A stretch of 64,000 nt of DNA from an uncultured Gammaproteobacteria bacterium (GTDB lineage Bacteria > Patescibacteriota > Microgenomatia > Daviesbacterales > UBA10151): positions 7,392 to 71,391 of the forward strand of contig CAYOSW010000004.1 of NCBI GenBank assembly GCA_964406775.1, read 5' to 3'. Made by a program: the position numbers and the translations under genes. How positions within the stretch are numbered: position 1 is the first letter of the stretch; the number at the start of each line of letters is the position of its first letter. The notes below the pieces were generated by a model. It was not told where the DNA came from. It made no database searches and was given only the letters and a program-made list of their open reading frames with translations. Below, one piece after another: positions 10,633 to 61,886 of this stretch.

Positions 10633-13600
10633 TTATTTTGCAAAAACCTCCTGGCCTAATAAAGGATAGTTCTTGGGGTGAATCTCCTCATTAATTAACC
10701 TTAAAAATTTTTGTTTACTTAAATCCCAACTGAAATTCAATGACCATACAAACGCTTCCTCAGATAATTCTCTTCTTAGTTTTGTATCTGAGATAATTTT
10801 TAATAACGCATCTGCAAACGCATTGATATTTTTTGGAGCAACCAAAATTCCGGTTTTCCCATTAACTATTGAGTCTCTAAGTCCGTTTACATCCGAAGCT
10901 ATTACCGGTGTCATACAAGCGTTTGCTTCGATTACAGTCATACCCCAGCCTTCAATCATTGAGGGCTGAACCATCACCCAGCTTTCTGTTAATAATTTAT
11001 GTTTCTCTGAATCGTTTACCCTACCCAAAAAGTGAACTGCATGTCCGATCTGCAACTGAGAAACCAATTTTTTTAATTTAACAGAGCTCTCTCCCGATCC
11101 TGCTATAGCAAAAAGCGCGTTGGGATATTTTTGCAGAATCTGCGCAAAAGCTTTAATCGCAACATCGATATTTTTGTACGGCTGCAGTCTTCCCAGATAC
11201 AGAACTTGAGGATTGGCAGTTTTTGTCAGTTTAGACGGCGTCGAAATATTTATTCCGGGATTGATAATTTCTATTTGTTTAAAATTGTCTTTTGCGAGTT
11301 TGATTATTTCAGCTTTTGATGACTGGGAAACCGTTATTACCTTTTGATTTTTGTAAACAAGCGGCATAAGTTTACCTTCTAAAAAGGATGCCAAAACCGC
11401 CAGAGGCAGAGGAAGATGGTTTCTGAATACTTCCTGGTGGATATGGTGTATTAATAAGAATTTCGGTTTTTTTACAAAAAGGGGTGTAAAGAAGGGGATT
11501 CCATTTTCAGAATCAATAACAACATCATATTTTCCTCTGAGTCTTAACATATAGTAAAGAGCTGCCCAGAAATAAACCATATAAAATCCCCCTCTTCGGA
11601 TTATTTGTATTCCGTCAATGACTTCATAGCGGGGACTATGGCCGTCACTGCCGGAGAAAACCGTAACTTGGAATCCGGCATCTACGCATTTTTTTGCTAT
11701 TTCGTGGATATATGATTCTGCACCCCCGGCCCATTTATGCTTTATGTCTCTCCAGTTAAATATCAATATTCTTTTTTGACCTTCTTTTACAGATACCGTT
11801 ATCTTTCCTTTATCCGATAAAGGCGAAAAAACAAGATCGAAGAGATCCAAAAATGCCCTTTCGGAAAGCCAGATATAATTTCTCAGGATATGCAAAAACC
11901 CCATCAAAGCAAAATTAAATGCACTTACTAAAAACATTATCCAAACGATTTGTGTTAAATTTTCGTGGAATATTGAAAGCAGAATTATTTGACCTACAGA
12001 TGCGGCAAATCCCACAACAACAAACAAGTGATTTTCTCTGGCCTGAAAGTATGAGATTACGGGCTGAGCGACGGTAAATAAAATAATTCCGGCGATGTAG
12101 ACAGGAATTAAATCCAGCACCGAGTATATCTTTGCACCGAAAAATATCGGCAGAATAACCGGTCCGAATAGAACCAGACCTAAGCCGGCCGATACTGTGA
12201 GCGATACAGTTAAGCCGAATAGAATAACAAATGTCCTGCTGCTTTTTTTATCTGCTCCTTCATTTCTTGCAACCAGCGGAAGCATTAGAGGTGCAAGCAG
12301 GGAACCGAAAAAGAACACCATTTTCCCGGGAAGAGAGAGCAGTCCGTATTGACCTGCTTCGAACGGACTTAAAAAGTGTTTTACCAAAACAACATCAAGA
12401 CCAAGAAAGGCAATATTTGTAATCCCGATTAGCAGCGAAGAAATATAAAAAGGCAGATTAAATTTAGCATGAGAGATCTGCATTTTTTTAACGGAAGGTT
12501 TACCGCTTAAAATCGAATTTAAAACAAGAGCGACAGTCATAGAAACCGGAATGGCAACGTAAACAAGATCACTCATTCCGGATTCGGTAAGCAGAATAAT
12601 CATTGATAGTTTTATTAATGCTTCAATCACTCCTACAAGAGCTATCTTGCTGAAGGACAGAGTTCCCTTCAAAAACCCCGAGAAATTAGCTCCGATTATC
12701 GCAATCAGCCAAACAGGACTGAAAATAAGGAATGGGATTGTCGAGTTTGTATTAAAGAATTTCTCCAGAAAAGGAATTGAAACTAACCAGATTAACATCA
12801 ATCCGATACCGGTAAACATTGACTTATTTACAAACTGGTCCAGATATCCTCTTGCCTGATCTTTGGAATATTTGCCGTACAGAAAAGCAATTTTTTGCGT
12901 AATTGTTGCCGAAAGTGCACCTAAAGGAATTGTCGAAATAAACAGAAAACTTGTAAAAAGATTCAGGTTGCCGTAATCCTCAAAAGTAAGTTTTCTTCCC
13001 AGATATGCATTGATAAAAAAATTACAGAAATTACTTATAAGCGATGCAAAAACCAGGGTAGAGGCTCCGAAGTAAACTTTCCTGAAACCTATTGAATCCG
13101 CTAATCTTTCCGTCAGTCTTTTTCCTATACCCGGTCTGGTAGTAGGGGAAACTGCAGCCGAGATAATGATGTCTGAGGTCTTCTCCTCAATTTCAGGCTG
13201 TTTAGCCAAATGAAGACCGTGGATTGTTTTCTCCCAGTAATGAGGTTTAACAATCAGCTGATAAAGTGCCATAACTGCCGCAACGGAACCCATTAACCAA
13301 TAGATAGGCACCAAGAATACGTATTTCATTAGCGCCCAATGATCTCTTTTTGCCGCACCGATCATATAGTTATAGATATATAAAAAGTTGCCTGCGATTA
13401 AAGAAAATACCGCGAAGTAAAAAACTACCGACGGAAAAAGAGATTCGATAAATGCCGAGGTGTATTGGTAATAAGCAAAGTAAGCAAATGTCGTGGCCCA
13501 AAGGACAGGATTGATTAACATAAACGAAATCCGGGCGCCAATGATTAATTGAAAAACAAACGCGTGCCACCCGTGATCTCTCACAAGCTCAACAGGTTTA

Positions 13601-15345
13601 CGCATATGGACTAAATAAGTCTGCATATATCCTTTAAGCCAGCGAGACCTTTGTCTTATCCAGTTTTTAACGTTACTGTTAGCTTCCTCAAGCGTTATAG
13701 AATCGATAATCGCGGTTTTATAACCCTTCTTAAAAAGTCTCACCCCTAAATCGCAATCCTCAGTAACATTAAAAGGATCCCAGCCTTCCAGCTCAATTAA
13801 GGTTTTAGTTCTAAAGTGGTTACTGGTTCCTCCTAAAGGAATAACCGTGTCGATTGATTGGAGTCCGGTTAACATCACATCAAACCAAAGTGAATATTCG
13901 GCCGTAAAGAAACGGGTTAATAAATTCTGATGAGGGTTAAAATAATTTAATTTTGCCTGGAGACAAACTATATTGGGCTTCGATTTCTTAAACGCCAGAT
14001 ATGCTTTTTTAAGCTGATCGGGTTCGGGAATATCCTCCGCATCGTAAACTACCAAGTATTCACCCTGCGCAAAATTTAATCCGTAGTTACAGGCTTTCGG
14101 CTTTGTTTTAGGCTCGCTTTCCGGAACAATAACCGTCGAGACATATTTAGGGAGACTCATCGCTTTAACAGCATCTATACTTATTTGGTCGTCTTCCTCG
14201 AGAAGCAGTTTTACATCCAGTTTATTTTTCGGATAATCAAGATTTGCTATAGCCTCTAAAAAGTGCGGAACAATATGTGCCTCCCTGTAAAGAGGACAGA
14301 GAATCGTATAAATAGGTAGACCCTCATCCTTAAGAGAAGTAAGCTCTTCCGCTGTAGAAGTAATTTCCGGCGGAAAATGCAGGCTTTTTAAAACAACATA
14401 TAGATTAAATAAAACATCAATAAAATACACAAAACTTAATATTCCGATAATTGAGATAAGCGTTGTAATGGGGCTTAAAATAATACCGATCTCTAAGATA
14501 ATTACCCCCAAAAGAATCACCAAAATCTGGCTTAAATGAAAAACTTCGAGAGCGGAGTGCTCCGGCTTTAGAGTCGTATGGGTTTTCAGCCATTTCCTGT
14601 TATGAATGAATCCCGCTCCAGCCATTGTATCGGAGGTTACCGGTTTAATCAGATAAGTTTTTCGTTTCGAAAGTTTTAATTTTAGGGCATTTTTACCGAT
14701 TTCTGCTGAAGTTTTAATGAGGTTAACTTTGGAGTGGCCGCCCGTCCGTTTATCAAAAGTAATATCTACACCGGCGATTTTAAATCCTAAATTACGAGCG
14801 GTATTCAGAAGAGCTAGATCGAGCGTCCAGGGAGTAAGTTCTTTTTCATCAATATAATCCAAAATTTCTTTACGGAATAGTTTCAAACCGGATTGCACAT
14901 CTACTTTAAATCCGTGAAGAAGTCTCCCGAAGCTGAAATTAAAAATCCTTGAGACTGTTTTCCTTAAAAATGAGGCCTGAAAACCTTTGCGGTTGGCAAC
15001 AACAACACCGTTTTCCTGAGCCTTAAAGTACATTTCCGAAATTGACTCGGGCGGATATTGTAAATCGGCATCCAACATAACTACATATTCGGATTTTGAA
15101 TGTTTTGCTCCTTCCAAAATTGAATACGCCTTGCCTGGTTTGCCTTTTTTTGTGTAGATCTCGATGGGATAACTCTCTTGCAGAAGATTAAGCACTTCCA
15201 ATGTTTTATCTGTTGAATGGTCGTCAACAAAAATCATTTTGTAGGCAATTTTTGCGTCAAGCATTGACTTGTTTATCCTCTGAATGAGGGGATAAATATT
15301 GGTTTCCTCGTTTTTAACAGGAATAATGATATCGAGATTTCTCAT
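10633..15345 (-). CDS. Giant four-domain glycan assembly protein: N-terminal GT2 (Dpm1/GtrB-like polyprenyl-phosphate glycosyltransferase), processive QxxRW-type GT2 synthase, polytopic flippase-like membrane domain, C-terminal GT4
   Basis: 1570 aa. Residues 1-230: NLDIIIPVKNEETNIYPLIQRI...FVDDHSTDKT (GT2). Residues ~330-610: second GT2 with YDAED (DxD) and QRSRWLKGY (QxxRW), then TM helices. Residues ~740-1160: about 10-12 hydrophobic helices. Residues ~1180-1570: GT4 with EGWGMTVIEANACMTPVIASD (E-x7-E). Confidence 0.75.
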   Translation of the reverse strand: MRNLDIIIPVKNEETNIYPLIQRINKSMLDAKIAYKMIFVDDHSTDKTLEVLNLLQESYPIEIYTKKGKPGKAYSILEGAKHSKSEYVVMLDADLQYPPESISEMYFKAQENGVVVANRKGFQASFLRKTVSRIFNFSFGRLLHGFKVDVQSGLKLFRKEILDYIDEKELTPWTLDLALLNTARNLGFKIAGVDITFDKRTGGHSKVNLIKTSAEIGKNALKLKLSKRKTYLIKPVTSDTMAGAGFIHNRKWLKTHTTLKPEHSALEVFHLSQILVILLGVIILEIGIILSPITTLISIIGILSFVYFIDVLFNLYVVLKSLHFPPEITSTAEELTSLKDEGLPIYTILCPLYREAHIVPHFLEAIANLDYPKNKLDVKLLLEEDDQISIDAVKAMSLPKYVSTVIVPESEPKTKPKACNYGLNFAQGEYLVVYDAEDIPEPDQLKKAYLAFKKSKPNIVCLQAKLNYFNPHQNLLTRFFTAEYSLWFDVMLTGLQSIDTVIPLGGTSNHFRTKTLIELEGWDPFNVTEDCDLGVRLFKKGYKTAIIDSITLEEANSNVKNWIRQRSRWLKGYMQTYLVHMRKPVELVRDHGWHAFVFQLIIGARISFMLINPVLWATTFAYFAYYQYTSAFIESLFPSVVFYFAVFSLIAGNFLYIYNYMIGAAKRDHWALMKYVFLVPIYWLMGSVAAVMALYQLIVKPHYWEKTIHGLHLAKQPEIEEKTSDIIISAAVSPTTRPGIGKRLTERLADSIGFRKVYFGASTLVFASLISNFCNFFINAYLGRKLTFEDYGNLNLFTSFLFISTIPLGALSATITQKIAFLYGKYSKDQARGYLDQFVNKSMFTGIGLMLIWLVSIPFLEKFFNTNSTIPFLIFSPVWLIAIIGANFSGFLKGTLSFSKIALVGVIEALIKLSMIILLTESGMSDLVYVAIPVSMTVALVLNSILSGKPSVKKMQISHAKFNLPFYISSLLIGITNIAFLGLDVVLVKHFLSPFEAGQYGLLSLPGKMVFFFGSLLAPLMLPLVARNEGADKKSSRTFVILFGLTVSLTVSAGLGLVLFGPVILPIFFGAKIYSVLDLIPVYIAGIILFTVAQPVISYFQARENHLFVVVGFAASVGQIILLSIFHENLTQIVWIMFLVSAFNFALMGFLHILRNYIWLSERAFLDLFDLVFSPLSDKGKITVSVKEGQKRILIFNWRDIKHKWAGGAESYIHEIAKKCVDAGFQVTVFSGSDGHSPRYEVIDGIQIIRRGGFYMVYFWAALYYMLRLRGKYDVVIDSENGIPFFTPLFVKKPKFLLIHHIHQEVFRNHLPLPLAVLASFLEGKLMPLVYKNQKVITVSQSSKAEIIKLAKDNFKQIEIINPGINISTPSKLTKTANPQVLYLGRLQPYKNIDVAIKAFAQILQKYPNALFAIAGSGESSVKLKKLVSQLQIGHAVHFLGRVNDSEKHKLLTESWVMVQPSMIEGWGMTVIEANACMTPVIASDVNGLRDSIVNGKTGILVAPKNINAFADALLKIISDTKLRRELSEEAFVWSLNFSWDLSKQKFLRLINEEIHPKNYPLLGQEVFAK

Positions 15346-32594: not shown

Positions 32595-33557
32595 ATGGCT
32601 GTTGCAGGCGTAGAGACCGAATATCATTTTAATACTCACGATGCGCTTAGAAAACTTTTGAGAGGTGTTTCACCTACTACAGTGTTTGTCCATCCTATTT
32701 TTCCAGATAAATTGCCCTGCCTCTCAGAAGAAGATCTCAAAGTCGGTCGCCTCAGTAAGAATGCTGATATTAAAAAAGCTATGGTTGGAGTTTTGCAAAG
32801 TGCGGCCTCAGCAGATATCGCCCACGCTTTTTTGCACACCTCAATACCGGCTTCAAGTCAAAGAGGAAGATACTCTCCTGGCATAAAAGCAACTGTAAAT
32901 TTAATTGATGCTTGCATATTCCCACAGTTTGAAGAAACTGTTCGGCCTGCTTTTTATGGAGTTTTAGATGCTTATCATTCAGGCTCCATACAGGCACCTC
33001 TCCTTGACCGTTTGATAGCAATTTACGGACCTCTCCTTGAACCGGCTCCTTCTGTAACAAGAATGGAGGTTGGTGCTAAATTCAGCAGAAACCGCAAAAC
33101 TTTGGATCTTTATACGAAGGATTACACACACATTCTTGCAGATTTGTTTGAAATCGAAAGCAAGAAGAGACCAGATGTATCAGAGTTATCAGATCTAATA
33201 GAGCACTCGACTTCAATTATAGGTGCGATGGCAGTTCGTAGTACCCAATTCTTATTGACTGCGTCTTTTGTCTTAACAGGCGATACAAGACCAACCGTCA
33301 ACCCATATAATCCAACCAATTTTCAGTTAACTCGCCGTCCCGACGGTAAACTTTCCGGCAAAATCCGCAGAAATGTCCGGGAAAAATTTGAGTCTGAATA
33401 TCCGAACACCTTAAGATTGGCTCCTCGAGATGAACCCTTTCTCGTCACAGGCTGTCCTGCAGCCTCCGACTTGATTGAGCTTGTACTTCAACGATATGCA
33501 CAAGCTGTACGAAATAATGCCGAGGGCAACTACAACACCTACAAAACAGTAGAATGA
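32595..33557 (+). CDS. Hypothetical protein (320 aa, no recognizable domain)
   Basis: Long ORF with no TM segments. An extended -10 (TGTTATAAT, 32580-32588) ends only 6 nt before the ATG, so it is a candidate leaderless mRNA. Confidence 0.5.
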   Translation: MAVAGVETEYHFNTHDALRKLLRGVSPTTVFVHPIFPDKLPCLSEEDLKVGRLSKNADIKKAMVGVLQSAASADIAHAFLHTSIPASSQRGRYSPGIKATVNLIDACIFPQFEETVRPAFYGVLDAYHSGSIQAPLLDRLIAIYGPLLEPAPSVTRMEVGAKFSRNRKTLDLYTKDYTHILADLFEIESKKRPDVSELSDLIEHSTSIIGAMAVRSTQFLLTASFVLTGDTRPTVNPYNPTNFQLTRRPDGKLSGKIRRNVREKFESEYPNTLRLAPRDEPFLVTGCPAASDLIELVLQRYAQAVRNNAEGNYNTYKTVE

Positions 33558-33618: not shown

Positions 33619-35034
33619 TTGCATATGGACTTGCCCAAGAATCTCACTTTTGTTGATATTGAAACCACAGGTGGCTCGGTAACCGCCGACCGGATTATTG
33701 AAATCGGAATTTTAAAAGTCCGCGACAATAAACTTGAAAAAACTTACCAGACTTTTTTAAATCCCGACCGTCCGCTTCCGGGAGAAATCCAACTTTTAAC
33801 CGGGATTAACCCTTCGGATTTAGAAAAAGCTCCTTCTTTTTTTGATATTAAAGACGATCTGCAGGAGTATTTTAATGAATCGGTGTTTGTGGCGCATAAC
33901 GCCAGGTTTGATTACGGATTTTTAAAGCAGGAATTTTTGCGTTACGGGGTAAAATTTACTCCCCGCCAGCTTTGCACAGTAAAGCTTTCAAGATTACTTT
34001 TCCCCGAGCACAGACACCATAATTTAGACAGCATTATTGAGAGATTCCGGTTTGATATCCAAAACCGTCACCGGGCTTTTTCGGACGCCAAAATTCTGTG
34101 GGATTTTTATCAGGAAATTCAAAATCTTTTTCCGCCGGAAAAATTAGTTCAAACTGTGAGCCATATCTTAAAAAAGCCCAACACTCCGCCGGGCTTAAAA
34201 ACTTTCGACCTCTCCCATCTTCCCGAATCGCCGGGAGTTTATATTTTTTACGGAAAATCCGGTGTTCCTCTTTACGTAGGAAAATCGAAAAATATCCGAG
34301 AGCGGGTTTTTAATCATTTTTCATTGAGTGCCGGCAATTCGCTGGAGATGAAAATCTATAATCAGGTAGAGAGTGTTGAGTTCGTCGAAACAGCCGGAGA
34401 GCTTGGCGCATTTCTAAAAGAATCGGAAATGATAAAAAAGTTAATGCCTCTATATAACCGTATGCTGCGGAATAAGGAGAAACTCACAGTTGCCAGGAAA
34501 GATTTAATTGACGGAATTTTTACAATAAAGCTTGAGGAAAGTGATTTCATAGGTTCTGATTCACTCAGCGAAATTATGGGAGTTTTTAAAAATAAAAGGA
34601 CAGCCCGAGAAAATTTAGTGGCTCTTGCTAAAGAATTTAATCTTTGCGACAGATTTTTGGATTTGGAAAAAACAAAAAGTTCCTGCTTTAATTACCGCCT
34701 GGGTAAATGTTCCGGTATATGCGCAGGGAAAGAGAATACAGCTAAATATAATCTGAGATTTATTGAGGCTTTTATAAGTTCCAAAATAAAATCCTGGCCC
34801 TATAAGGGGCCTATTATAATAAAGGAAGTGAGTGAAAACTCCGGTAAAGAGGAACAATTCTTGGCGGATAATTGGTGCATTATTCAAAAACACGAAGGCG
34901 ACAACGATATCATAAAAGATCTGGAGTTTGACCTCGATGCATATAAAATTTTAAAAAGATTCCTCTTTAAAAATCCCAACCAAATAGTACTAAAAAATTA
35001 CGGGGAGGCCGTTTTTTCACCCGACCTCCCCTGA
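33619..35034 (+). CDS. DnaQ-like 3'-5' exonuclease fused to GIY-YIG nuclease (Cho / UvrC-homolog-like)
   Basis: N-terminus FVDIETTG...VAHNARFDYGFL carries the DEDDh exo I/II motifs. The mid-region GVYIFYGKSGVPLYVGKSKNIRERVFNHF is the GIY-YIG motif. The architecture matches mycobacterial Cho. Confidence 0.7.
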   Translation: MHMDLPKNLTFVDIETTGGSVTADRIIEIGILKVRDNKLEKTYQTFLNPDRPLPGEIQLLTGINPSDLEKAPSFFDIKDDLQEYFNESVFVAHNARFDYGFLKQEFLRYGVKFTPRQLCTVKLSRLLFPEHRHHNLDSIIERFRFDIQNRHRAFSDAKILWDFYQEIQNLFPPEKLVQTVSHILKKPNTPPGLKTFDLSHLPESPGVYIFYGKSGVPLYVGKSKNIRERVFNHFSLSAGNSLEMKIYNQVESVEFVETAGELGAFLKESEMIKKLMPLYNRMLRNKEKLTVARKDLIDGIFTIKLEESDFIGSDSLSEIMGVFKNKRTARENLVALAKEFNLCDRFLDLEKTKSSCFNYRLGKCSGICAGKENTAKYNLRFIEAFISSKIKSWPYKGPIIIKEVSENSGKEEQFLADNWCIIQKHEGDNDIIKDLEFDLDAYKILKRFLFKNPNQIVLKNYGEAVFSPDLP

Positions 35035-35042
35035 AGTACATC

Positions 35043-35354
35043 TCATTTTAATCTCCTTCTTACTGCTTTAAGCAGCTGGGGGTTTACGTAAACTCCCCTT
35101 TTTTCAAAATCCTGATATGCCCAGCCTAAAACGTCTTTGGCATATTTCTGATCATTTGTTGCCAAAGTATGAGCAAATCCAGACAATTCTCTAAGCAATC
35201 CGGATTGTCCGACTATCTTGGCAAGTCTCGCCCTATCGTGAGGCCTGTCGATGCTCGCCATAGCCATCCGCATTGAAGTTTCGGTTACAGCTGTTTTCCA
35301 ATGTTCCGTGGATACAAACGCGACATCCTGTCTTCTTTGTTGTTCAACTACCAT
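35043..35354 (-). CDS. Hypothetical protein (103 aa), co-operonic with the ATP-grasp ligase
   Basis: A strong SD (AAAGGAGGTG) lies 6 nt upstream of the ATG. It is 2 nt downstream of the ATP-grasp stop. Basic C-terminus, no known motif. Confidence 0.45.
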   Translation of the reverse strand: MVVEQQRRQDVAFVSTEHWKTAVTETSMRMAMASIDRPHDRARLAKIVGQSGLLRELSGFAHTLATNDQKYAKDVLGWAYQDFEKRGVYVNPQLLKAVRRRLK

Positions 35355-35356
35355 TA

Positions 35357-36328
35357 TTATTCACCTCCTTTCAAAACTTTTTTGTATTCCTCAATAAAAA
35401 AATCGGCCAGCATTCCCCAACCGTCAATCCCGTACTCCTGCTTGAAAGAAGAGCGTAAAATCGAAAGGGCGTTAATGTCATAAACGAACCAATCTCCTTT
35501 TTGATCAACCAAATATTCAACACCTCCGCATTCCAGTCCGGCTTTTTGCACTGTTTTTTCTATGGCTTTTACAATTCCAGAAGGAATATCCCGAAAAAGT
35601 TCAAAGCGGACTGAGTCTCCGGGATTTGCAACACAATACCCGATTTCATTTTTCGCTTCGCCTCTCTCTATATCACAGGAGTCCGAAGGACATAAATTAA
35701 AAGTTCCCGGGGTAAAAACTTTCATCGCATAAATAACTTTTCCGTTAATAGTTTCTACCCTGATGATGTTATTTTCTTTCGGCTGTATAAATTCTTGAAG
35801 AATCAATAAATTATCAGTAGGCATAATTAAAGATTTGTCACCAATCGCATCAGCAAGAGACCGCTTTGACGTAAATTTTTGAATCCCCACCCCCGAACCT
35901 CCCAAATTAGGTTTGATGACTACCGGGAAAGTAAGTGAATCGATATTTTTTAGAATCCCGGATAATGAATTAACTATCACCGACTTTGGCTGAGGAATAC
36001 CCCAACTCCTTAGTAGCGACAACTGAAATGCCTTGTTTGTCTCAAGAATGACTGCCCTGGAACCGTTTATCACTCTTTTTCCTAAAGATTCCAAATATAG
36101 GATGTAATTTAATGTGAATGAGAAAGCCGATGAGTGATTACGGTTTCCCGCACTTGGACTTAAACGGTTTACAAAAAAAGGATATTTTATACCTGAAGTT
36201 GCATCGTATGCGGATGATGAGATATCCATCCTTTCATAGGAAATGTTTCTTCCGGAAAATTCCTGATATAGGGCGTCCAGCCAGAATGGATGTTCGTCTA
36301 AAATAATAATCGGTTGTTTATTGCTCAT
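35357..36328 (-). CDS. ATP-grasp ligase (RimK/LysX-like fold)
   Basis: VVIKPNLGGSGVGIQKF is the RimK-type P-loop-like segment. C-terminal GGVEYLVDQKGDWFVYDINALS is the Mg/ATP-binding region. SD GAGGAT upstream of the ATG. Confidence 0.7.
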   Translation of the reverse strand: MSNKQPIIILDEHPFWLDALYQEFSGRNISYERMDISSSAYDATSGIKYPFFVNRLSPSAGNRNHSSAFSFTLNYILYLESLGKRVINGSRAVILETNKAFQLSLLRSWGIPQPKSVIVNSLSGILKNIDSLTFPVVIKPNLGGSGVGIQKFTSKRSLADAIGDKSLIMPTDNLLILQEFIQPKENNIIRVETINGKVIYAMKVFTPGTFNLCPSDSCDIERGEAKNEIGYCVANPGDSVRFELFRDIPSGIVKAIEKTVQKAGLECGGVEYLVDQKGDWFVYDINALSILRSSFKQEYGIDGWGMLADFFIEEYKKVLKGGE

Positions 36329-36355
36329 TTTTTATCCTCACAAAATTTGGCCACT

Positions 36356-36600
36356 AAAAAAGCCCTTGCTTGCTTACTAGTTTCCTAATAAACAAACAAG
36401 GGCCTTCAAAAGGCGGTTCCACCTTGCTTCATCCGTTACCGGATCTCATTCCCTGACTCCTCCTCGCTGTGCTCTGAGTAAACTTTAAAGTCCACATCGA
36501 ACGAAGTGAGATGACATCAGTTTGTAATATTTTACAGTTTTACTTCTGTAATCCATTTTTGGATTCAGCTCCCGGATCGCAACTCCAGTCAAACGCTTGT
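36356..36600 (-). promoter_or_regulatory. T-box riboswitch leader (promoter, Stem III, T-box antiterminator, intrinsic terminator) upstream of the ATP-grasp operon
   Basis: On the minus strand, TTGACA (-35) is followed 17 nt later by ATATAA (-10). Stem III hairpin AUCCG-GUAA-CGGAU. T-box core GCAAGGUGGAACCGCC (plus-strand coordinates 36412-36427) matches the consensus AGGGUGGNACCGCG. Antiterminator: A1 CAAGG/CCUUG, 7-nt bulge UGGAACC, A2 GCC-UUUUGAA-GGC. Competing terminator: a 19-bp stem (three G-U wobbles) with GAAA loop and U6, plus-strand coordinates 36356-36404. Confidence 0.7.
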
Positions 36601-36719
36601 AAGTGTTTTATATCAAACTTTAGGCTCGGATGTCAACTATCCCTATTTTTTGAATGCTGATAGAAAACTCCACATCGTAATTATTTGGAATATACATAAT
36701 TTGCAGTAAAATACCGAAT

Positions 36720-36923
36720 ATGAACGAGATAGTAAAAAATTATGTGCAGAACTTCAGGACTGCCAGAAAAATGACTCAAGAAGATCTTGCACGGACCATA
36801 GGAGTAACTAGACAAACAATTATCGCAATTGAAAAGGGTAACTACACACCATCAGTCTTGTTAGCGTTAAAAATTGCCAAGTTCTTTAAGTCTTCTGTTG
36901 AAAAAATATTTAGATTAGAATAG
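36720..36923 (+). CDS. XRE-family helix-turn-helix transcriptional regulator
   Basis: 67 aa. MTQEDLARTIGVTRQTIIAIEKGNYTPSVLLALKIAKFF is a canonical Cro/C1 HTH. Confidence 0.85.
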   Translation: MNEIVKNYVQNFRTARKMTQEDLARTIGVTRQTIIAIEKGNYTPSVLLALKIAKFFKSSVEKIFRLE

Positions 36924-36930
36924 ACATACT

Positions 36931-37284
36931 ATGCTCACTGAAACATTAACACTAATAATTATTTTCATTATTGCAATTATTTTTTTGAATCCGGGCCATC
37001 TGGCAATGCCTGATACAATCAATTCAATTTTAATATTCGGGTTTATTTTAGCGTTCCTAATCTTTGCTGCATTCATTATTCGCGAAAAATCATCCGACGA
37101 GAGAGAGTCTTTACATATACTAAAAGCCGGCCGGCTATCCTACTTAACGGGGGTGGGGGTATTAGTTTTGGGAATAATTTTCCAGGCACTTAAACACGAG
37201 GTAGATCCCTGGTTAGTCTTGGCAATATGTGCTATGACCCTATCAAAGATAATCTCTAGAATATATTCAAGATTCAAACTCTGA
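36931..37284 (+). CDS. Small polytopic membrane protein, conserved partner of XRE-type regulators (DUF2178-like arrangement)
   Basis: 117 aa with 3-4 TM helices. Starts 8 nt after the HTH gene stop. Confidence 0.45.
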   Translation: MLTETLTLIIIFIIAIIFLNPGHLAMPDTINSILIFGFILAFLIFAAFIIREKSSDERESLHILKAGRLSYLTGVGVLVLGIIFQALKHEVDPWLVLAICAMTLSKIISRIYSRFKL

Positions 37285-37364: not shown

Positions 37365-37919
37365 ATGAAATATGCAAGCATAGGAATTGTTGTTTTAGTT
37401 ATTTTAGCGATCGGAGGATTCTATCTTTACTTTCAAAATCAAACAGCTTCCGACTCTATGATGAAGCAGGACGAAGTTATGATGGAGCAGTCCGGTGATT
37501 CAATGGAGAAAACAGATTCTATGATGGATAAAGCTTCAGGAACCGATTCCGGAGCTATGATGGGAGATAAGGCATCAGCAGATAATATGATGTCCGGGGG
37601 AGGCTATCAGCCGTTCTCTCAAAGCGCTTTCGACAGCGCCAAAGGTGATAAAAGAGTTTTATTCTTCTTTGCCAACTGGTGTCCGACCTGTAAGCCTATC
37701 GATGCAGAATTGAGTGCAAATGCAGCTAAAATACCCGAAGGAATTGAAATATTCAGAGTTAACTATAATGATACAGACACCGATGCAGCAGATAAGGAAC
37801 TTGCTGCAAAGTATGGTATTACATATCAGCACACGTTTGTTCAAGTTGATGCTTCAGGAGGCGAAATCGCTAAATGGAACGGTGGCGGACTGGACAAGAT
37901 AGTTTCGATGGTTAAATGA
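37365..37919 (+). CDS. Membrane-anchored thioredoxin-like protein with methionine-rich (putative Cu(I)-binding) linker
   Basis: N-terminal TM helix, then a Met-rich low-complexity region (MMKQDEVMMEQSGDSMEKTDSMMDKASGTDSGAMMGDKASADNMMSGG), then a thioredoxin active site FFANWCPTCK. Confidence 0.7.
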   Translation: MKYASIGIVVLVILAIGGFYLYFQNQTASDSMMKQDEVMMEQSGDSMEKTDSMMDKASGTDSGAMMGDKASADNMMSGGGYQPFSQSAFDSAKGDKRVLFFFANWCPTCKPIDAELSANAAKIPEGIEIFRVNYNDTDTDAADKELAAKYGITYQHTFVQVDASGGEIAKWNGGGLDKIVSMVK

Positions 37920-37923
37920 TAGT

Positions 37924-39705
37924 ATGGAACAAGGACAGGTAAAACTGTCTTTGTTTTTCACTATGATTCTACTAATAATTTTCGCATTTCTGGCAGGAAT
38001 CGTCACAATTCTTTCGCCCTGCATTCTGCCGATACTTCCGATAATTTTATCCTCGGGCTTCGGTACAGTCCAAACAGGAAAGGGAAGGCCTCTTGGCGTT
38101 ATCACCGGCTTCATTTTAAGTTTTACTTTTTTCACCCTATTTCTCTCAACAATAGTCGGCGCTATCGGAATCCCGGCAGATTATTTAAGACTTTTTTCCG
38201 TTGCAGTAATTGCTCTTTTTGGAGTATCTATGCTTATCCCGAAATTCCAAATATTTTTAGAAATTTTGTTCTCAAAACTGTCGCAATTTTTACCCCAATC
38301 CCAAAATAGTACCGGCTTCGGCGGAGGAATAATAATCGGACTATCTCTCGGACTATTATGGACTCCTTGTGTGGGACCTATACTTGCATCAGTAATTTCT
38401 CTGGCCATTACGGGCGCTGTGACACTTGATGCATTCTTCATTACTTTAGCGTATTCCTTGGGAACTGCAATCCCGATGTTCTTTATAATGATTGCCGGCC
38501 AAACTGCTCTGCGTAGAGCTCCCTGGCTTTTAAATAACGCCTCAAAAATTCAACAGGGTTTCGGAATTCTAATGATACTTACGGCAATAGCCATTTTCTT
38601 TAATTTTGACCGCAATTTTCAAACATTCATCCTCAATACTTTTCCCAATTACGGAACCGGTTTGACAAAATTTGAAGATAATCCCCAAATTCAAAACGCT
38701 TTACAGAAGCTGTCGGGGGAAACAGTAGAGGAAGAGAATGTCGGGAAAGCTATGTTCGACCTGGCTCCAAAAGGAGATCCGGCTCCGGAGATTATTCCCG
38801 GCGGAGAGTGGTTTAACAGCCCCCCCTTAACTATGAAGAGCTTGCGGGGGAAAGTTGTTTTAATAGATTTTTGGACATACTCCTGTATCAATTGCCAGCG
38901 GACTTTGCCCTATTTAAAATCTTGGTGGGAAAAGTACAAGGATAAAGGATTGGTAATTATCGGTGTTCATTCCCCTGAATTTGAATTTGAAAAAAATCCC
39001 AAAAATGTTGAAAAAGCTATCGCCGATTTTGGGTTAACTTATCCGGTAGTGCAAGACAATGATTTCTCCACTTGGCGCGCCTATAAAAACCGTTTCTGGC
39101 CGGCTAAATATTTAATAGACAAAGATGGCAATATTAGGTATACCCACTTTGGAGAAGGAGCTTATGATGAGACTGAAAAAGTTATTCAGGAACTCTTAGC
39201 AGAGACAGGTTCTGATGTCACTCAAACCCAAATTAGTAATCCAACATATGAAAATTATGCTAAAACTCCTGAACTCTATCTTGGGTATTGGAGGATTGAA
39301 GCTTTATCGTCACCTGAATTTATCGTCAAAGATGCCGGCGCTTTGTATACCTCTTCTCTTACTCCGCCTGCTAACAAATTTGGGTTATCAGGTGAGTGGG
39401 ATGTTATGGAGCAATACTCTAATCCAAAAAAAGATTCGTTATTGTTTTTGAATTTTGACGCTAAAGAAGTTTTTTTAGTTATGCGGTCAAAGGATGGAAA
39501 AACCGCTGGCAAAGTCAAAATATATTTGGATAACAAACCTGTTTCCGAAGCCGATTCAGCTGGAGTTGATGTTAAAGACAGCGTTGTTACAGTAACCGGC
39601 GACACTCTCTATAAATTAATCAATCTCCCCACCCCCGGCCGTCATATTTTAAAACTGGAATTTTTGGATAGTAACACTGAAGTTTATGCTTTTACTTTTG
39701 GCTAG
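37924..39705 (+). CDS. CcdA/DsbD-type thiol-disulfide transporter fused to TlpA/redoxin-like thioredoxin domain
   Basis: N-terminus LAGIVTILSPCILPILPIILS is the CcdA signature with Cys, followed by 6 TM helices. Mid-region FWTYSCINCQRTLPYL is the redoxin CxxC. A C-terminal region of about 180 aa has unknown fold. Confidence 0.8.
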   Translation: MEQGQVKLSLFFTMILLIIFAFLAGIVTILSPCILPILPIILSSGFGTVQTGKGRPLGVITGFILSFTFFTLFLSTIVGAIGIPADYLRLFSVAVIALFGVSMLIPKFQIFLEILFSKLSQFLPQSQNSTGFGGGIIIGLSLGLLWTPCVGPILASVISLAITGAVTLDAFFITLAYSLGTAIPMFFIMIAGQTALRRAPWLLNNASKIQQGFGILMILTAIAIFFNFDRNFQTFILNTFPNYGTGLTKFEDNPQIQNALQKLSGETVEEENVGKAMFDLAPKGDPAPEIIPGGEWFNSPPLTMKSLRGKVVLIDFWTYSCINCQRTLPYLKSWWEKYKDKGLVIIGVHSPEFEFEKNPKNVEKAIADFGLTYPVVQDNDFSTWRAYKNRFWPAKYLIDKDGNIRYTHFGEGAYDETEKVIQELLAETGSDVTQTQISNPTYENYAKTPELYLGYWRIEALSSPEFIVKDAGALYTSSLTPPANKFGLSGEWDVMEQYSNPKKDSLLFLNFDAKEVFLVMRSKDGKTAGKVKIYLDNKPVSEADSAGVDVKDSVVTVTGDTLYKLINLPTPGRHILKLEFLDSNTEVYAFTFG

Positions 39706-56734: not shown

Positions 56735-57061
56735 GTGAACGACCTGACTAAAAAGCATTGTGTTCCCTGTGAAAACGGTGAAGGAAAATTACCGATCGGT
56801 AAAATCAAAGAATATCTTCCTGTTGTTGAGGGGTGGTTTTTGATAGGTGATCAAATCAAAAGAGACTTTAAATTTAAAAATTTTAAAGAAGCTATGGAAT
56901 TTGTGAATAAAGTGGCCGATATCGCTGAATCGGAAGGTCATCACCCGGATATCTATATTTTCTATAACAAGGTCAGTCTGAATCTTTCCACTCACGCTGC
57001 TAAAGGACTTACCGAAAATGATTTTATCTTAGCTGCTAAAATTAATACCCTGGATGCTTAG
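56735..57061 (+). CDS. 4a-hydroxytetrahydrobiopterin dehydratase (PCD/DCoH)
   Basis: The EGHHPDI signature ([EDKH]-H-[HY]-P). 108 aa. Confidence 0.8.
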   Translation: MNDLTKKHCVPCENGEGKLPIGKIKEYLPVVEGWFLIGDQIKRDFKFKNFKEAMEFVNKVADIAESEGHHPDIYIFYNKVSLNLSTHAAKGLTENDFILAAKINTLDA

Positions 57062-58503
57062 TATCTAGGTTCCTCGGGATTTTTCAAATATTCTTCCAAT
57101 CCGGCAATTCTATTTTTCACTTCATCCTCCCCTAATATTTGTATTGATTCAAAAAGAGGGGGAGTTACCAGCTGTCCGGAAACCGCGACCCGGATCAGTT
57201 GAAACATATCCAAATTCGAAGTCCCCAGCTCAACAGCCAAAGCTTTAAAGGCTTCTTCAAATTCTTTTGAGTCCCAGGGGTTTTTTAACTGCCCCAATTT
57301 TTCTGAAATTTTCTGCAGTGCTGTTTTTTTATCCTGAATTTTCACTTTTTCAATTTGCGCCATATCATATTCCGGTTTTCCGAAAAAGAAATCCGTTAAT
57401 GGAATAAAATCAGAAAGTTTCTTAATCCGTTCCTTGATCAGCGGGACCAGTTTCACCAGGATTTCCGTATCCGGTATATTTTTGGCTATGTGATCAACTT
57501 CTTTGAGATATTTTTCCAGCCTGCCTGCCAATTCCTCATCCGTCATTTTTCTAATATATTCCCCATTTATCCAGTCCAGTTTTACCGGATCAAAAGCCGG
57601 ACCGACGGGAGAAAAATCTTTTAAATCAAGTTTCTCTATGAATTCATCAATCGGGAAAATTTCCTTTTGTTCCGGATGCGACCAACCCATCAGCGCAAGA
57701 TAATTTAAAATCGCCTCAGGCAAATATCCGTCTTTTAAATACCAGGAAACCCAAACCGGATTGCGCCTTTTTGACAATTTAGATTTATCCGAATTACGTA
57801 AAATCGGCAAATGAACAAAAACAGGCAATTCCCAACCGAAGGCTTTGTACAACAGCACGTGTTTCGGAGTTGAGGAAATCCACTCTTCTGCCCTTATAAC
57901 GTGGGAAATTTTCATTGAATAATCGTCTACTACGACACCAAGGTGGTACGTCGGAAAACCGTCGGATTTAAGTAAAACCTGGTCATCCAGTTCTTTGCTG
58001 TTTATCGTAATCTTGCCTCTGATTAAGTCATCGAATGTTATGTCTTCATTTTCCGGAACTTTTAACCTGATTACAAATTTTTCCCCTGTTGCATTAGCGT
58101 CACAATATTCGCGGTGTTTCTTCTTAGTTCTTGAGGCCATCTCTTCGTTCCTGATTTTCTCCAGCTTTTCTTTGGAGCAAAAACATTTATATGCGAGATC
58201 CAGAGTTATCAGTTCCTGTGCGTAACCCTGATATAACTCCAGTCTTTCCGATTGTCTGTAAGGCTCAAAAGGTCCTCCGACTTCAGGACTTTCATCAGGT
58301 TTTAAACCGAAGGCGGCAATTGAAGCTAAAATAGTTTTCTCGGCGCCTTCAACATACCTTTCACGGTCCGTATCTTCAATCCGCACTACGAATTTACCAT
58401 TATTTTTCCTTGCAAACGCCCAATTTATTAAAGCTGTATAAAGATTACCTATATGTAAATCTTCGCCTGTTGGGGAAGGCGCAATTCTGGTTCTAACTTC
58501 CAT
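57058..58503 (-). CDS. gltX: Glutamyl-tRNA synthetase
   Basis: RIAPSPTGEDLHIGN (HIGH-type) and KLSKR (KMSKS). The likely start is the internal Met (MEVRTRIAPSPTG). The ORF-track start at 58548 adds 15 aa and abuts the divergent gene start (CATATG). Confidence 0.85.
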   Translation of the reverse strand: MEVRTRIAPSPTGEDLHIGNLYTALINWAFARKNNGKFVVRIEDTDRERYVEGAEKTILASIAAFGLKPDESPEVGGPFEPYRQSERLELYQGYAQELITLDLAYKCFCSKEKLEKIRNEEMASRTKKKHREYCDANATGEKFVIRLKVPENEDITFDDLIRGKITINSKELDDQVLLKSDGFPTYHLGVVVDDYSMKISHVIRAEEWISSTPKHVLLYKAFGWELPVFVHLPILRNSDKSKLSKRRNPVWVSWYLKDGYLPEAILNYLALMGWSHPEQKEIFPIDEFIEKLDLKDFSPVGPAFDPVKLDWINGEYIRKMTDEELAGRLEKYLKEVDHIAKNIPDTEILVKLVPLIKERIKKLSDFIPLTDFFFGKPEYDMAQIEKVKIQDKKTALQKISEKLGQLKNPWDSKEFEEAFKALAVELGTSNLDMFQLIRVAVSGQLVTPPLFESIQILGEDEVKNRIAGLEEYLKNPEEPRY

Positions 58504-58548
58504 ATGATCTGAAGTATAATATAACTTGCAGGCTATACGCCATACCAT

Positions 58549-60566: not shown

Positions 60567-61886
60567 TTACTTCAAGGTTGATAAACGGACATCCACCCTT
60601 TCCATATCGCGGGGGAAAAGCGATGCCTGCCTGATGTTGGCAAGCTTGAGTAAATTCATTGTCATCCTCTCAAGTCCGAAAGAAAATCCACCCTCAGGAG
60701 GCATTCCGAATCTGAATGCCTGCAGATACATTTCAAACTGGGACGGGTTCATTCCTCTTTCTTTTATTGTTTCTACCAATTGGTCGTAATCGCTGATTCT
60801 CTGGCTTCCCGACAAAATTTCCAGACCTCGGAATAATAAATCATAACTTAAGCTGTATTCCGGATTTTCAGGATCAGGCATTGTATAAAAAGCACGTTTT
60901 TTAGTGGGGAAGTGGGTTATGGTAACGAGATCTGAACCGTGCTCTTTATTTGCCCATTTGCAGATATCAACTTCATCCTGGGGAGTTAAGTCTTTCTCTT
61001 TACGGTTATCCCTTCCGAATTCTTTATAAATTACTTCCTGGGCTTCCCTTAAAGTCAGGCGCGGGATTTTCCCGAAGGCAACCGGCTCCACATTAAATTC
61101 TTTTAATTCTTCCGGACAATTTTCCTCCGCATATTTCAAAACTTCTGTTCCCACTTTCTCGAGCATATCGAGTAGTTCTTCGAAATTAACAAATCCGAAT
61201 TCACAATCCATTTGAGTTGAAACGGATAAATGCCTCGTTGTGACCGAAGGTTCAGCCCGGTAAGCGTGAGCGATCGTAAAAACTCTTTCGAAAACAGGCA
61301 CCAGCATTTGTTTATATAGTTGCGGAGACTGAGTCATTGTCGCCTGGTGACCGTAATAATCAACTTTAAAGACCTCCGCGCCTCCTTCGGTTGAACCTAC
61401 TGCAATTTCCGGAACAACAATCTCCACACAATCCAGCTCTTTGGAAACCTTTCTGAATCCTTCGAGAATTGCCGATTGGACTTTAAAAATTGCCCTTACC
61501 TGCGGATGACGCAATGTCAGTGATCTGAAATCCAAAAGGGTAGGAAGCTGGAGTTCTAAATCCTTCATAGCAAGATCAAAAGGTAGTTCTGCAGCTTTCG
61601 ATATAACCTTAACGGTTTCGGATTGAAGCTCGATCTTACCCGTAGCTAAGTTAGGATTTATCAGTTTTTCCGGCCGGCCTGCAACTTTTCCGGTGATCTC
61701 AACTACATCCTGAGGTCTGATATCGCCTAAATTTTCTTTTGTGCAAAAAACCTGGATAATTCCGGTTCTATCAGCCACATCAAGAAAACCGATCTTGCCG
61801 TGATCGCGCCTGACCTGGACCCATCCGGATACCGTTACTGTTTCTCCGACCTTGTCATTGCAGTCTAAAATCAATGTTCTTTTCAT
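60567..61886 (-). CDS. aspS: Class IIb aminoacyl-tRNA synthetase, probable archaeal/eukaryal-type aspartyl-tRNA synthetase (AsnRS not excluded)
   Basis: N-terminal OB anticodon-binding domain. Motif 2 YRAEPSVTTRHLSVSTQMDCEF and motif 3 GGFSFGLERMTMNL...FPRD. At 439 aa the length fits a non-discriminating archaeal-type AspRS. Confidence 0.7.
   Translation of the reverse strand: MKRTLILDCNDKVGETVTVSGWVQVRRDHGKIGFLDVADRTGIIQVFCTKENLGDIRPQDVVEITGKVAGRPEKLINPNLATGKIELQSETVKVISKAAELPFDLAMKDLELQLPTLLDFRSLTLRHPQVRAIFKVQSAILEGFRKVSKELDCVEIVVPEIAVGSTEGGAEVFKVDYYGHQATMTQSPQLYKQMLVPVFERVFTIAHAYRAEPSVTTRHLSVSTQMDCEFGFVNFEELLDMLEKVGTEVLKYAEENCPEELKEFNVEPVAFGKIPRLTLREAQEVIYKEFGRDNRKEKDLTPQDEVDICKWANKEHGSDLVTITHFPTKKRAFYTMPDPENPEYSLSYDLLFRGLEILSGSQRISDYDQLVETIKERGMNPSQFEMYLQAFRFGMPPEGGFSFGLERMTMNLLKLANIRQASLFPRDMERVDVRLSTLK

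Follow-up and report, generated by a model that had tools for sequence, protein, structure and literature searches.

What signal controls an ATP-grasp ligase gene encoded on the minus strand of a 64,000-nt stretch of contig CAYOSW010000004.1 (assembly GCA_964406775.1; hereafter the window), and how is that signal read in this genome of the Candidate Phyla Radiation (CPR; Microgenomates-type)? Judging from its sequence, the leader of the gene is very likely a genuine tRNA-sensing T-box riboswitch, and it probably senses uncharged tRNA-Cys and controls, by transcription attenuation, a two-gene transcript made of the ligase and a lineage-specific open reading frame (ORF). An initial annotation of this DNA had already proposed a T-box with a competing antiterminator and terminator in front of a RimK/LysX-like ATP-grasp gene instead of an aminoacyl-tRNA synthetase gene, and our alignment to the Rfam T-box model RF00230, our folding and the conservation of the leader in orthologues bear this out.

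A predicted T-box leader upstream of the ligase gene

The promoter, Stem III, T-box core, antiterminator and terminator listed in the initial annotation were all found on the minus strand, as were the two ORFs that it had assigned to the transcript:

36607-36636, minus strand: sigma-70-type promoter, read from the sequence (TTGACA at 36636-36631, 17-nt spacer, ATATAA at 36613-36608)
36431-36444, minus strand: Stem III, AUCCG-GUAA-CGGAU, with a GNRA loop and preceded by the purine-rich GGGAAUGAG (alignment and folding)
36397-36426, minus strand: T-box sequence and antiterminator (helix A1 CAAGG/CCUUG, bulge UGGAACC, helix A2 GCC-UUUUGAA-GGC)
36356-36404, minus strand: intrinsic terminator (20-bp stem at 36404-36361, GAAA loop, U6 at 36361-36356; terminator scan and folding)
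35357-36328, minus strand: ATP-grasp ligase of 323 aa (Shine-Dalgarno sequence (SD) GAGGA at 36339-36335; Pfam RimK, 1.8e-10)
35043-35354, minus strand: basic ORF of 103 aa, 2 nt downstream of the ligase stop codon (net charge about +7)

The T-box core GGUGGAACCGC lies at 36423-36413, immediately downstream of Stem III, and is the only place in the window with an exact match to GGTGGNACCGC. The antiterminator has a bulge of the canonical 7 nt (36421-36415, with UGGA at 36421-36418) and is what minimum-free-energy folding of this segment alone gives (-7.6 kcal/mol). The terminator, at -30.4 kcal/mol, includes in its 5' arm the CCCUUG that provides the 3' strand of helix A1, and antiterminator and terminator are thus mutually exclusive folds built on a common strand. 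The strong stem, the GAAA loop, the U6 tract and this sharing of the A1 strand agree with the initial annotation, except for the distance to the SD, given there as 25 nt. From the end of the U-tract we count 16 nt to the SD, which is free, and 27 nt to the ATG.

Concerning the promoter, an extended -10 reading is also available (TG-n-TATAAA, 18-nt spacer, ending at 36607), and transcription is predicted to start at about 36600 on the minus strand. Our consensus promoter scan omitted the promoter at 36636-36608, since its rule demands a T as the last base of the -10 hexamer. Both hexamers are unchanged in two related strains (loci L161 and L172), with 4-5 variable positions in the spacer, while the sequence 5' of the -35 hexamer in L172 is unrelated, which indicates that conservation starts at the promoter. 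From here to the ligase gene (about 36600-36329) the leader folds much more stably than shuffled controls (z=-7.1).

In a local scan of 551 nt (36250-36800) with permissive filters, RF00230 matched 36602-36395 over its full model length with 30.6 bits and E=5e-05 (about 6e-3 when scaled to 64 kb), below the gathering score of 93 bits. The low score is accounted for by the interior of Stem I, which has 7 nt where the model has 76, and by about 75 nt inserted before Stem III. The parts that align well are the GA/kink-turn (K-turn) motif, the hairpin at the position of Stem II, the F-box-like element, Stem III and the whole discriminator, where AAGGUGGAACCGCC falls on the conserved T-box sequence of the model.

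The same leader is present in L161 and L172, whose ligases are 97% identical to that of the window, and the discriminator is also found 5' of two more distant orthologues, L163 (72% protein identity) and L164 (66%). The segment AAGGUGGAACCGCCUUU..AAGGCCCUUG, from AAGG to CCCUUG, is unchanged in the window, L161, L162, L172, L163 and L164 apart from 2 loop bases. Around it the sequence changes and the pairing does not. Stem III reads AUCCG-GUGA-CGGAU in L172, still with a GNRA loop, and UCAUCC-UUU-GGAUGA in L163, a different sequence forming the same hairpin. Terminators form in L172, L163 and L164 with energies of -29.5 to -32.1 kcal/mol each, and that of L164 is unrelated in its interior yet keeps CCCUUG...CAAGGG and the U-run. 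A discriminator retained at 72% and 66% protein identity, flanked by a Stem III and a terminator that are paired anew after sequence change, takes the RF00230 match beyond chance. T-boxes were found only in these closest orthologues, which were fetched one by one; a T-box core directly upstream of the ligase was present in none of the first 160 orthologous loci (0/160).

An ultrashort Stem I and the predicted specificity for cysteine

The initial annotation had left Stem I and the specifier codon unplaced. Both can now be assigned, Stem I as an ultrashort hairpin on a K-turn-like base with UGC in the middle of its 7-nt apical loop, followed by further elements in the order expected for a T-box:

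36567-36597, minus strand: ultrashort Stem I, AGC/GUUUGA (K-turn/GA motif)/CUGGA/loop GUUGCGA/UCCGG/GA/GCU (RF00230 alignment and folding)
36546-36568, minus strand: hairpin at the position of Stem II, CUGAAUCCA-AAAA-UGGAUUACAG (RF00230 alignment, with the apical S-turn region deleted, and folding)
36525-36549, minus strand: Stem IIA/B-like element, ACAG-AAGUAAAA-CUGU, then F-box-like CUGUAA (aligned to CGguuau..uucCGUUA of the model)
36453-36520, minus strand: variable hairpin of 68 nt between IIA/B and Stem III, an insertion with respect to the T-box model that folds as a long imperfect hairpin

The minimum-free-energy fold of Stem I is a 5-bp helix with the apical loop GUUGCGA at 36583-36577. 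The proposed specifier UGC occupies 36581-36579 and is followed by a purine, G, at 36578. A purine is needed 3' of a T-box specifier (PMC7583486), and short Stem I variants carry their specifier in the apical loop (PMC7583486; bioRxiv 10.1101/2023.02.28.530422). The sequence GCGUUUGA...GGAGC aligns to the GA motif that RF00230 has at the base of Stem I, in an atypical form with a 4-nt bulge and, in L172, AA instead of GA on the 3' strand. Apart from this change, L161 and L172 have the same Stem I as the window. A long Stem I cannot lie further upstream, because the promoter directly precedes this hairpin and the L172 sequence before the -35 hexamer is unrelated.

Downstream of Stem I, the hairpin at the Stem II position keeps its pairing as U-G in L161, where an A has changed to G. 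At the place of the F-box, L163 has CCGUAA, which is nearer to the canonical F-box. The IIA/B loop GUAA could form a putative pseudoknot with a downstream UUAC. The 68-nt hairpin has one G-U pair replaced by A-U in L172, and in L163 it has shrunk to about 26 nt on an unchanged base, CUGA...UCAG. It can therefore be regarded as a variable element; one may speculate that it gives time or extra contacts for tRNA capture.

The bulge UGGA requires a tRNA with the discriminator base U73, as the initial annotation had stated, and of glycine and cysteine, which it had left as candidates, cysteine is favoured by the UGC loop and by the polycysteine leaders of orthologues described below. The triplets available in the apical loop are GUU, UUG, UGC, GCG and CGA, and among the corresponding tRNAs only tRNA-Cys carries U73. 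Taken at the level of sequence, cysteine is the most likely specificity of this T-box. The experimentally supported Cys T-boxes of Clostridium perfringens have ...GAGTGGAACC, the core GUGGAACC and a TGC specifier (PMC2940859), and TGC was the specifier in 100% of Cys T-boxes according to Vitreschak et al., as cited in PMC2940859.

According to this model, RNA synthesis would begin at about 36600, and the GCA anticodon of tRNA-Cys would pair with the UGC at the centre of the apical loop of the ultrashort K-turn-based Stem I. An uncharged tRNA would then pair through its 3' U73-C-C-A end with UGGA in the 7-nt bulge, and this pairing, together with stacking on Stem III, would stabilise the weak antiterminator (about -8 kcal/mol) and allow read-through into the ligase gene. 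With charged tRNA, the terminator (about -30 kcal/mol) would form instead through the common CCCUUG strand, and transcription would stop at U6. We infer tRNA-Cys as the ligand from the features above, along with the geometry of the K-turn and the pseudoknot, and the minimal design, with neither an elbow platform nor a recognisable S-turn, would have to suffice for co-transcriptional tRNA sensing.

Several observations weigh against such a model. The distal platform of Stem I (AG bulge plus distal loop, forming the double T-loop that contacts the tRNA elbow) is missing, with 7 nt present against a consensus of 76, and no S-turn motif (AGUA/GAA) can be recognised in the Stem II hairpin. In a review of T-box architecture, the elbow platform is deemed essential in transcriptional T-boxes, and the S-turn is described as supporting short Stem I variants (PMC7583486). 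The K-turn bulge has 4 nt instead of 3, and its 2n G is changed to A in L172. Stem I and its UGC loop are known from three near-identical strains only (the window, L161 and L172) and are without covariation support, because the contigs of L163 and L164, from SRR30813768 and SRR22387951 respectively, stop before Stem I. The RF00230 score is one third of the gathering score, and whole-window Rfam scans at gathering or E-value thresholds, with stricter filters, returned a tRNA-Gln and not the T-box. Finally, neither the window, where this tRNA-Gln is the only tRNA gene, nor the related loci contain a tRNA-Cys gene, and the GCA anticodon and U73 of tRNA-Cys are taken from general knowledge.

The missing platform and S-turn and the low score, together with the essential role given to the platform in transcriptional T-boxes (PMC7583486), would also fit a decaying T-box, in which tRNA sensing was lost with most of Stem I and the discriminator and terminator now act as a constitutive or otherwise regulated attenuator. 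We consider such a remnant unlikely. At 66-72% protein identity the T-box 14-mer, the bulge and helices A1 and A2 are invariant and Stem III and the terminator change in a compensatory way, which points to purifying selection on the module that binds the tRNA acceptor end and not on the terminator alone. Moreover, the K-turn motif is retained along with a 7-nt loop that resembles an anticodon loop and has UGC at its centre, and a constitutive terminator of -30 kcal/mol would keep an otherwise well-conserved gene silent.

Cysteine and methionine sensors upstream of orthologous ligases

If the T-box responds to tRNA-Cys, which signals control the same gene elsewhere? We fetched 174 loci, most of which encode relatives of the ligase. 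All six Patescibacteria-type orthologues (52-61% identity) with a readable leader lack a T-box and have in its place an upstream ORF (uORF) with a run of Cys codons, followed by a terminator. The Cys runs read VVVCCCNSI, LVCCCEAILS, VVCCCEASFL, SCCCLAT, TVCCQNVS and IVCCNMTTL in the following leader peptides:

L001: MKVNNVVVCCCNSI
L165: MKITLVCCCEAILS
L166: MIKTVVCCCEASFL
L167: MKRIYRSSVVSCCCLAT
L169 and L170: MHLTIITVCCQNVS
L081: MASNINFIVCCNMTTL

When a ribosome was masked at the Cys codons of L001, L165, L166 and L169, the segment after the stop codon paired with the 5' arm of the terminator (about -13 kcal/mol), and when it was masked at the stop codon the terminator alone remained, as expected for classical attenuation.

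Such leaders are by no means restricted to Patescibacteria. An ATG-started polycysteine uORF of at most 60 aa was present within 300 nt upstream of the ligase in 48 of 150 loci, as compared to 2/150 for the reverse complement, 0/150 for shuffled sequences and 65 of 5658 other 300-nt windows (1.1%). Likewise, at least 4 Cys codons within a stop-free window of 8 codons were found in the 300 nt upstream in 64/150 loci, against 0/150 for the reverse complement. In Hymenobacter the leader peptide is MACCCCCCPA, in Gemmatimonadota MCCCCMCMC..., and in Acidobacteriota the peptides are of the MAMCCCMCMCTGERPVLSNFS type, with Cys and Met mixed. Polycysteine uORFs of mycobacteria have been shown experimentally to be Cys-responsive attenuators (bioRxiv 10.1101/834739).

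A second type of sensor is found in some loci. Among 30 orthologous loci scanned with Rfam, six carry a same-strand S-adenosylmethionine (SAM) riboswitch upstream, SAM-I in L025, L029, L030, L089 and L091 (72-77 bits) and SAM-II in L033 (36.1 bits, at threshold), in each case 5' of the ligase. Overall, ligase relatives in at least six other phylum-level groups lie under cysteine/methionine sensors other than the T-box. Since its orthologues in sister lineages are under polycysteine control, low charging of tRNA-Cys would turn on the same gene there as a T-box with UGC and U73 would here.

These data also bear on the possibility of a functional T-box for another tRNA, such as that of glycine, the other common U73 tRNA, or with a specifier outside the apical loop of Stem I. 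UGGA by itself suits Gly as well as Cys, glycine T-boxes can do without Stem II (PMC7583486), and the only support for Stem I comes from near-identical strains and from a model alignment that scores below threshold. However, there is no GGN among the five apical-loop triplets, the leader peptides of the orthologues are polycysteine and not polyglycine, and the SAM riboswitches, like the CysK, trans-sulfuration and MsrA neighbours described below, indicate sulfur amino acids rather than glycine. The known Cys T-boxes moreover share the GUGGAACC core and the UGC specifier (PMC2940859). We therefore hold another specificity to be improbable and retain tRNA-Cys as the predicted ligand.

It could be argued that the Cys-rich ORFs preceding the orthologues are instead substrates or products of the enzyme, for instance metal-binding peptides or precursors of ribosomally synthesized and post-translationally modified peptides (RiPPs), and would tell us nothing about Cys sensing. 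Some RiPPs are indeed matured by ATP-grasp enzymes, the acidobacterial peptides keep a non-Cys tail (as in MAMCCCMCMCTGERPVLSNFS), and the marine loci carry a Cys-rich hydrophobic ORF of 70-83 aa in the place of a short leader. Yet Patescibacteria conserve the Cys run only, next to a stop codon that adjoins a three-segment antiterminator/terminator design, and the Hymenobacter peptides have just 9-10 residues (MACCCCCCPA). One clade, moreover, has a T-box and no such peptide at all, and others have SAM riboswitches in its place, which implies that the peptide is dispensable for enzyme function, and there is experimental precedent for regulation in mycobacteria (bioRxiv 10.1101/834739). RiPP precursors were rejected on the conservation of the Cys run only, the attenuator design and this dispensability, and the broader idea of peptide substrates or products is very improbable next to that of sensory leaders.

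Three groups of leaders deserve separate mention. A conserved Cys/Met leader, MAMCCCMCMCTGERPVLSNFS, lies at 3774-3878 of L005, 5' of an operon of an ATP-grasp and an SfnG-like monooxygenase gene, and similar leaders occur in about 40 other loci of Acidobacteriota, Verrucomicrobiota and Gemmatimonadota (e.g. L006, L021, L050 and L071); their conserved non-Cys tail may reflect a constraint on RNA structure or a function of the peptide. In Hymenobacter-type loci (L030, 1530-1732; L025, 202-395) a SAM-I riboswitch is followed in tandem by a polycysteine uORF, with peptides ending in ...GLGCCCCLA* and ...ACCGGCCCAQ*, and then by the ligase-monooxygenase operon, an arrangement implying dual control by SAM and Cys. 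Marine loci labelled as Marinimicrobia (L003, 577-792; L092, 3392-3643; L096) have, directly 5' of the ligase, the ORF of 70-83 aa, with the motif …KKLCCYLMACSD…CWCCKGCCG…, which is either a long sensory leader or a genuine membrane protein.

An uncharacterised ATP-grasp ligase and its partners

What then is the enzyme under this control? The families nearest to it ligate a carboxylate with an amino acid, in most cases Glu or aminoadipate. The ligase missed all NCBIfam cut-offs (77.1 bits against 143.4 for rimK_fam, 66.2 against 350 for MptN and 61.2 against 275.6 for LysX), and a profile search of the PDB gave best matches to LysX and RimK at E of about 1e-11. An AlphaFold2 (AF2) model of good quality (predicted local distance difference test score (pLDDT) 89.8, predicted template modelling score (pTM) 0.88) retrieved with Foldseek ArgX, LysX, PsnB, RimK and Ddl at about 17% identity and template modelling (TM) scores of 0.7-0.83 (0.73-0.83 for ArgX, LysX and RimK when normalised by target length). 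The ATP/Mg residues K139, G143, G144 and G146 (in the G143-G146 loop), E271, D284 and N286 are invariant in the family, as are three family-specific motifs: an N-terminal LDEHPxW, NRLSPS, and a Cys-containing loop, FNLCPSDxCD...GYC, which is modelled at low confidence (residues 223-236). One search gave 117 homologues, and a set of 185,579 species genomes contained at least 584 stretches that match. The family forms 96 clusters at 50% identity (E<=1e-30), and the homologues that are named come from 'Patescibacteria group bacterium'. The ligase is thus a member of an uncharacterised family in the RimK/LysX/MptN-like group.

Its neighbours in other genomes repeatedly belong to sulfur metabolism. 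In 80 loci the gene directly 3' of the ligase codes for a monooxygenase of the luciferase-like (LLM) class, nearest to the dimethylsulfone monooxygenase SfnG (255 bits, for an equivalog cut-off of 383) and to SsuD. A CysK gene (384 bits, over the cut-off) lies 70 nt upstream of the ligase in L016 and others lie nearby in L091, L093 and L094, an enzyme of the cystathionine gamma-synthase/lyase family (trans-sulfuration) precedes it in L089, with the SAM riboswitch before both, and four Verrucomicrobiota-type loci (L019, L044, L047 and L065) encode MsrA 30-41 nt before the ligase.

Most likely, the ligase is an ATP-dependent carboxylate-amine ligase that is induced when charging of tRNA-Cys becomes limiting and acts in the acquisition or salvage of sulfur amino acids. 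A role in cysteine salvage is suggested by regulation and neighbourhood. The family is a good candidate for a step of sulfur amino-acid metabolism that is so far undescribed. We give about even chances to a more general proposal: that throughout Patescibacteria, marine bacteria labelled as Marinimicrobia, Acidobacteriota, Gemmatimonadota, Bacteroidota, Verrucomicrobiota and others this family catalyses an undescribed and apparently important step of Cys/Met acquisition or salvage, that it was put independently under a Cys T-box, poly-Cys/Met leaders, SAM-I and SAM-II, and that the sensor in CPR would be a transcriptional T-box of novel architecture, in which Stem I is ultrashort and both elbow platform and S-turn are missing.

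The second gene of the transcript, the 103-aa ORF, is translationally coupled to the ligase, with a 2-nt gap and an SD within the 3' end of the ligase gene, and has no Pfam, NCBIfam or PHROG match. Homologues exist only at 94-100% identity (L161, L162, L172, L173 and L174), whereas the position after the ligase is taken by an unrelated ORF in the 72% orthologue L163 and by none in L164; being limited to near-identical strains, it is no conserved partner of the ligase. Its single-sequence AF2 model is all-helical and, with a pLDDT of 58, too poor for a fold search.

The initial annotation had suggested the 103-aa protein as a possible partner, acceptor or graspetide-like precursor for the ligase. 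A peptide-modification pair of this kind under T-box control, either graspetide-like or made of a RimK/LysX-like enzyme and its acceptor, would agree with the translational coupling and with the closest structures (PsnB, LysX/ArgX and RimK), which act on protein or peptide substrates. However, the narrow distribution of the ORF speaks against it, and so do the 80 loci of other phyla that have the SfnG-like monooxygenase as partner instead, the pairing seen in most orthologues elsewhere. Graspetide maturase models gave the ligase 21-23 bits for cut-offs of 230-350, LysX gave 61 for 276, and the C-terminus of the 103-aa protein, ...RRRLK, lacks an acidic tail like that of LysW or S6. Such a pair is accordingly a far-fetched alternative. 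Of the undescribed ligation system responsive to tRNA charging that had been proposed, the uncharacterised enzyme family stands, while the peptide-tailing pair does not, and membership of a Cys/Met-limitation regulon across many phyla is the better description.

Two further arrangements were seen around the orthologues. In L106, L113, L130 and other Acidobacteriota the ligase-monooxygenase pair sits between trmD and rplS of the rimM-trmD-rplS ribosomal cluster, an adjacency that we treated as incidental and not as a functional link. Five Patescibacteria-type loci have next to the ligase, in varying orientation, an orphan protein of 410-447 aa that carries the motifs FHTHGQNW and HCGxCF, matches nothing significantly in sequence searches of Pfam, NCBIfam and the PDB, and is not encoded in the window:

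L165, 5976-7304: orphan protein
L166, 1317-2660: orphan protein
L167, 1278-2543: orphan protein
L164, 1057-2289: orphan protein
L081, 4113-5381: orphan protein

Relationship to known systems

In Firmicutes, Cys-specific transcriptional T-boxes precede cysS and cysE-cysS, and in C. perfringens cysK-cysE, cysP1, cysP2 and ubiG (PMC2940859, PMC2566862). The leader described here resembles these in its UGC specifier, its GUGGAACC core with an A opposite U73, the competition between antiterminator and terminator, and the predicted induction of Cys-related genes at low charging of tRNA-Cys. It differs in its ultrashort Stem I with an apical specifier, its score of 30.6 bits, its occurrence in a CPR genome and its uncharacterised ATP-grasp target.

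A second point of comparison is provided by the ultrashort (US) Stem I T-boxes of actinobacterial ileS (Sherwood 2015, as summarised in PMC7583486 and bioRxiv 10.1101/2023.02.28.530422), a class that these two sources describe as translational, acting through an SD sequestrator, limited to ileS and tRNA-Ile, and dependent on the S-turn of Stem II. As far as these summaries go, the two have in common a short Stem I with a K-turn or K-turn-like base, a specifier in the terminal loop and the absence of the double-T-loop elbow platform, with Stem II, IIA/B and III-like elements following. Unlike the US class as summarised there, the leader of the window has an intrinsic terminator with U6, a free SD, a Cys codon, a target that is not an aminoacyl-tRNA synthetase and no recognisable S-turn, and belongs to another phylum. 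The apical loop contains no AUC, AUU or AUA triplet, and UGGA implies U73, again unlike the US class responsive to tRNA-Ile. Functionally, the element would be a Cys T-box, a known kind, and it is the combination of an ultrashort Stem I, a terminator, a Cys codon and a target other than an aminoacyl-tRNA synthetase that differs from the described class.

Concerning the polycysteine attenuators, the signal known from mycobacteria, the availability of Cys-tRNA, governs the orthologues of the ligase in sister lineages and other phyla. This signal is read by ribosomes stalling on Cys codons in one case and, as predicted here, by direct binding of the tRNA in the other, with an equivalent physiological output. 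The mycobacterial polycysteine leaders are leaderless and mainly translational, while those found here are predicted to be of the classic terminator/antiterminator type; such designs were seen in Patescibacteria, Acidobacteriota, Gemmatimonadota, Bacteroidota and Verrucomicrobiota. As to the enzyme, the ligase shares with RimK, LysX, ArgX, MptN and CofF the three-domain ATP-grasp fold, the best sequence-family scores and the conserved ATP/Mg residues, but differs from them in its identity of about 17%, its own motifs, scores below the curated cut-offs, the lack of a LysW/S6-type partner and its sulfur amino-acid context.

Our literature search returned no report joining a T-box with an ATP-grasp gene, a T-box with Patescibacteria/CPR, or a SAM riboswitch with an ATP-grasp gene. 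TBDB applied its model with a truncated Stem I to Actinobacteria only (PMC7778990), and this limit, together with an RF00230 score at a third of the threshold, suggests that standard pipelines systematically miss such elements. T-boxes in CPR genomes may consequently be under-counted.

If the minimal design is functional, neither the elbow platform nor the S-turn would be strictly required for co-transcriptional tRNA sensing, and a terminator-type T-box with an apical Cys specifier in a CPR bacterium would challenge the tie between short Stem I variants and the translational control of ileS. With a length of about 250 nt, 68 of them apparently dispensable, the leader would also make a very small natural tRNA sensor. 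In addition, the comparative pattern places a 'hypothetical' ATP-grasp ligase and its SfnG-like monooxygenase partner in a Cys/Met-limitation regulon, which offers a testable entry to an undescribed step of sulfur metabolism, including in culturable Hymenobacter and Spirosoma species. Orthologous genes in which one and the same signal is read by a leader peptide here and by a T-box or a SAM riboswitch there would make a clean natural case of regulatory replacement.

Other features of the window

The two-gene operon probably ends at a hairpin that it would share with the convergent gene ending at 35034, and which our terminator scan omitted because its loop exceeds 8 nt:

34992-35031, minus strand: operon-end hairpin GGGGAGG...CCUCCCC followed by a T-run, read from the sequence

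This convergent gene (33619-35034, plus strand) codes for a DnaQ-type 3'-5' exonuclease fused to GIY-YIG/UvrC_M/Cho_C domains (Cho-like nuclease). On the other side, a secreted thioredoxin-like protein and a DsbD_TM-thioredoxin fusion, both thiol-disulfide oxidoreductases, are encoded at 37365-39705 on the plus strand and adjoin the operon in all three strains; a functional link of these neighbours to the Cys-regulated operon is possible. Between them and the T-box promoter lie, at 36720-37284 on the plus strand, an XRE-type helix-turn-helix gene (67 aa) and a membrane ORF of 117 aa. L172 has neither of them, and there the thioredoxin gene and the T-box operon diverge directly from each other.

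The genes for glutamyl-tRNA synthetase and for a non-discriminating aspartyl-tRNA synthetase (57058-58548 and 60567-61886, both minus strand) have essentially no upstream leader, and with no space for one they are not T-box regulated, although in the same genome a T-box serves a gene that codes for no such synthetase. The best named matches of the glutamyl-tRNA synthetase are in 'Microgenomates group bacterium' and 'Candidatus Roizmanbacteria', which, like the named ligase homologues, identifies the host as a CPR/Patescibacteria bacterium. An ORF of 320 aa (32595-33557, plus strand) has no Pfam or NCBIfam match and keeps its synteny in L161 and L172, and an ORF of 1570 aa occupies 10633-15345 on the minus strand.

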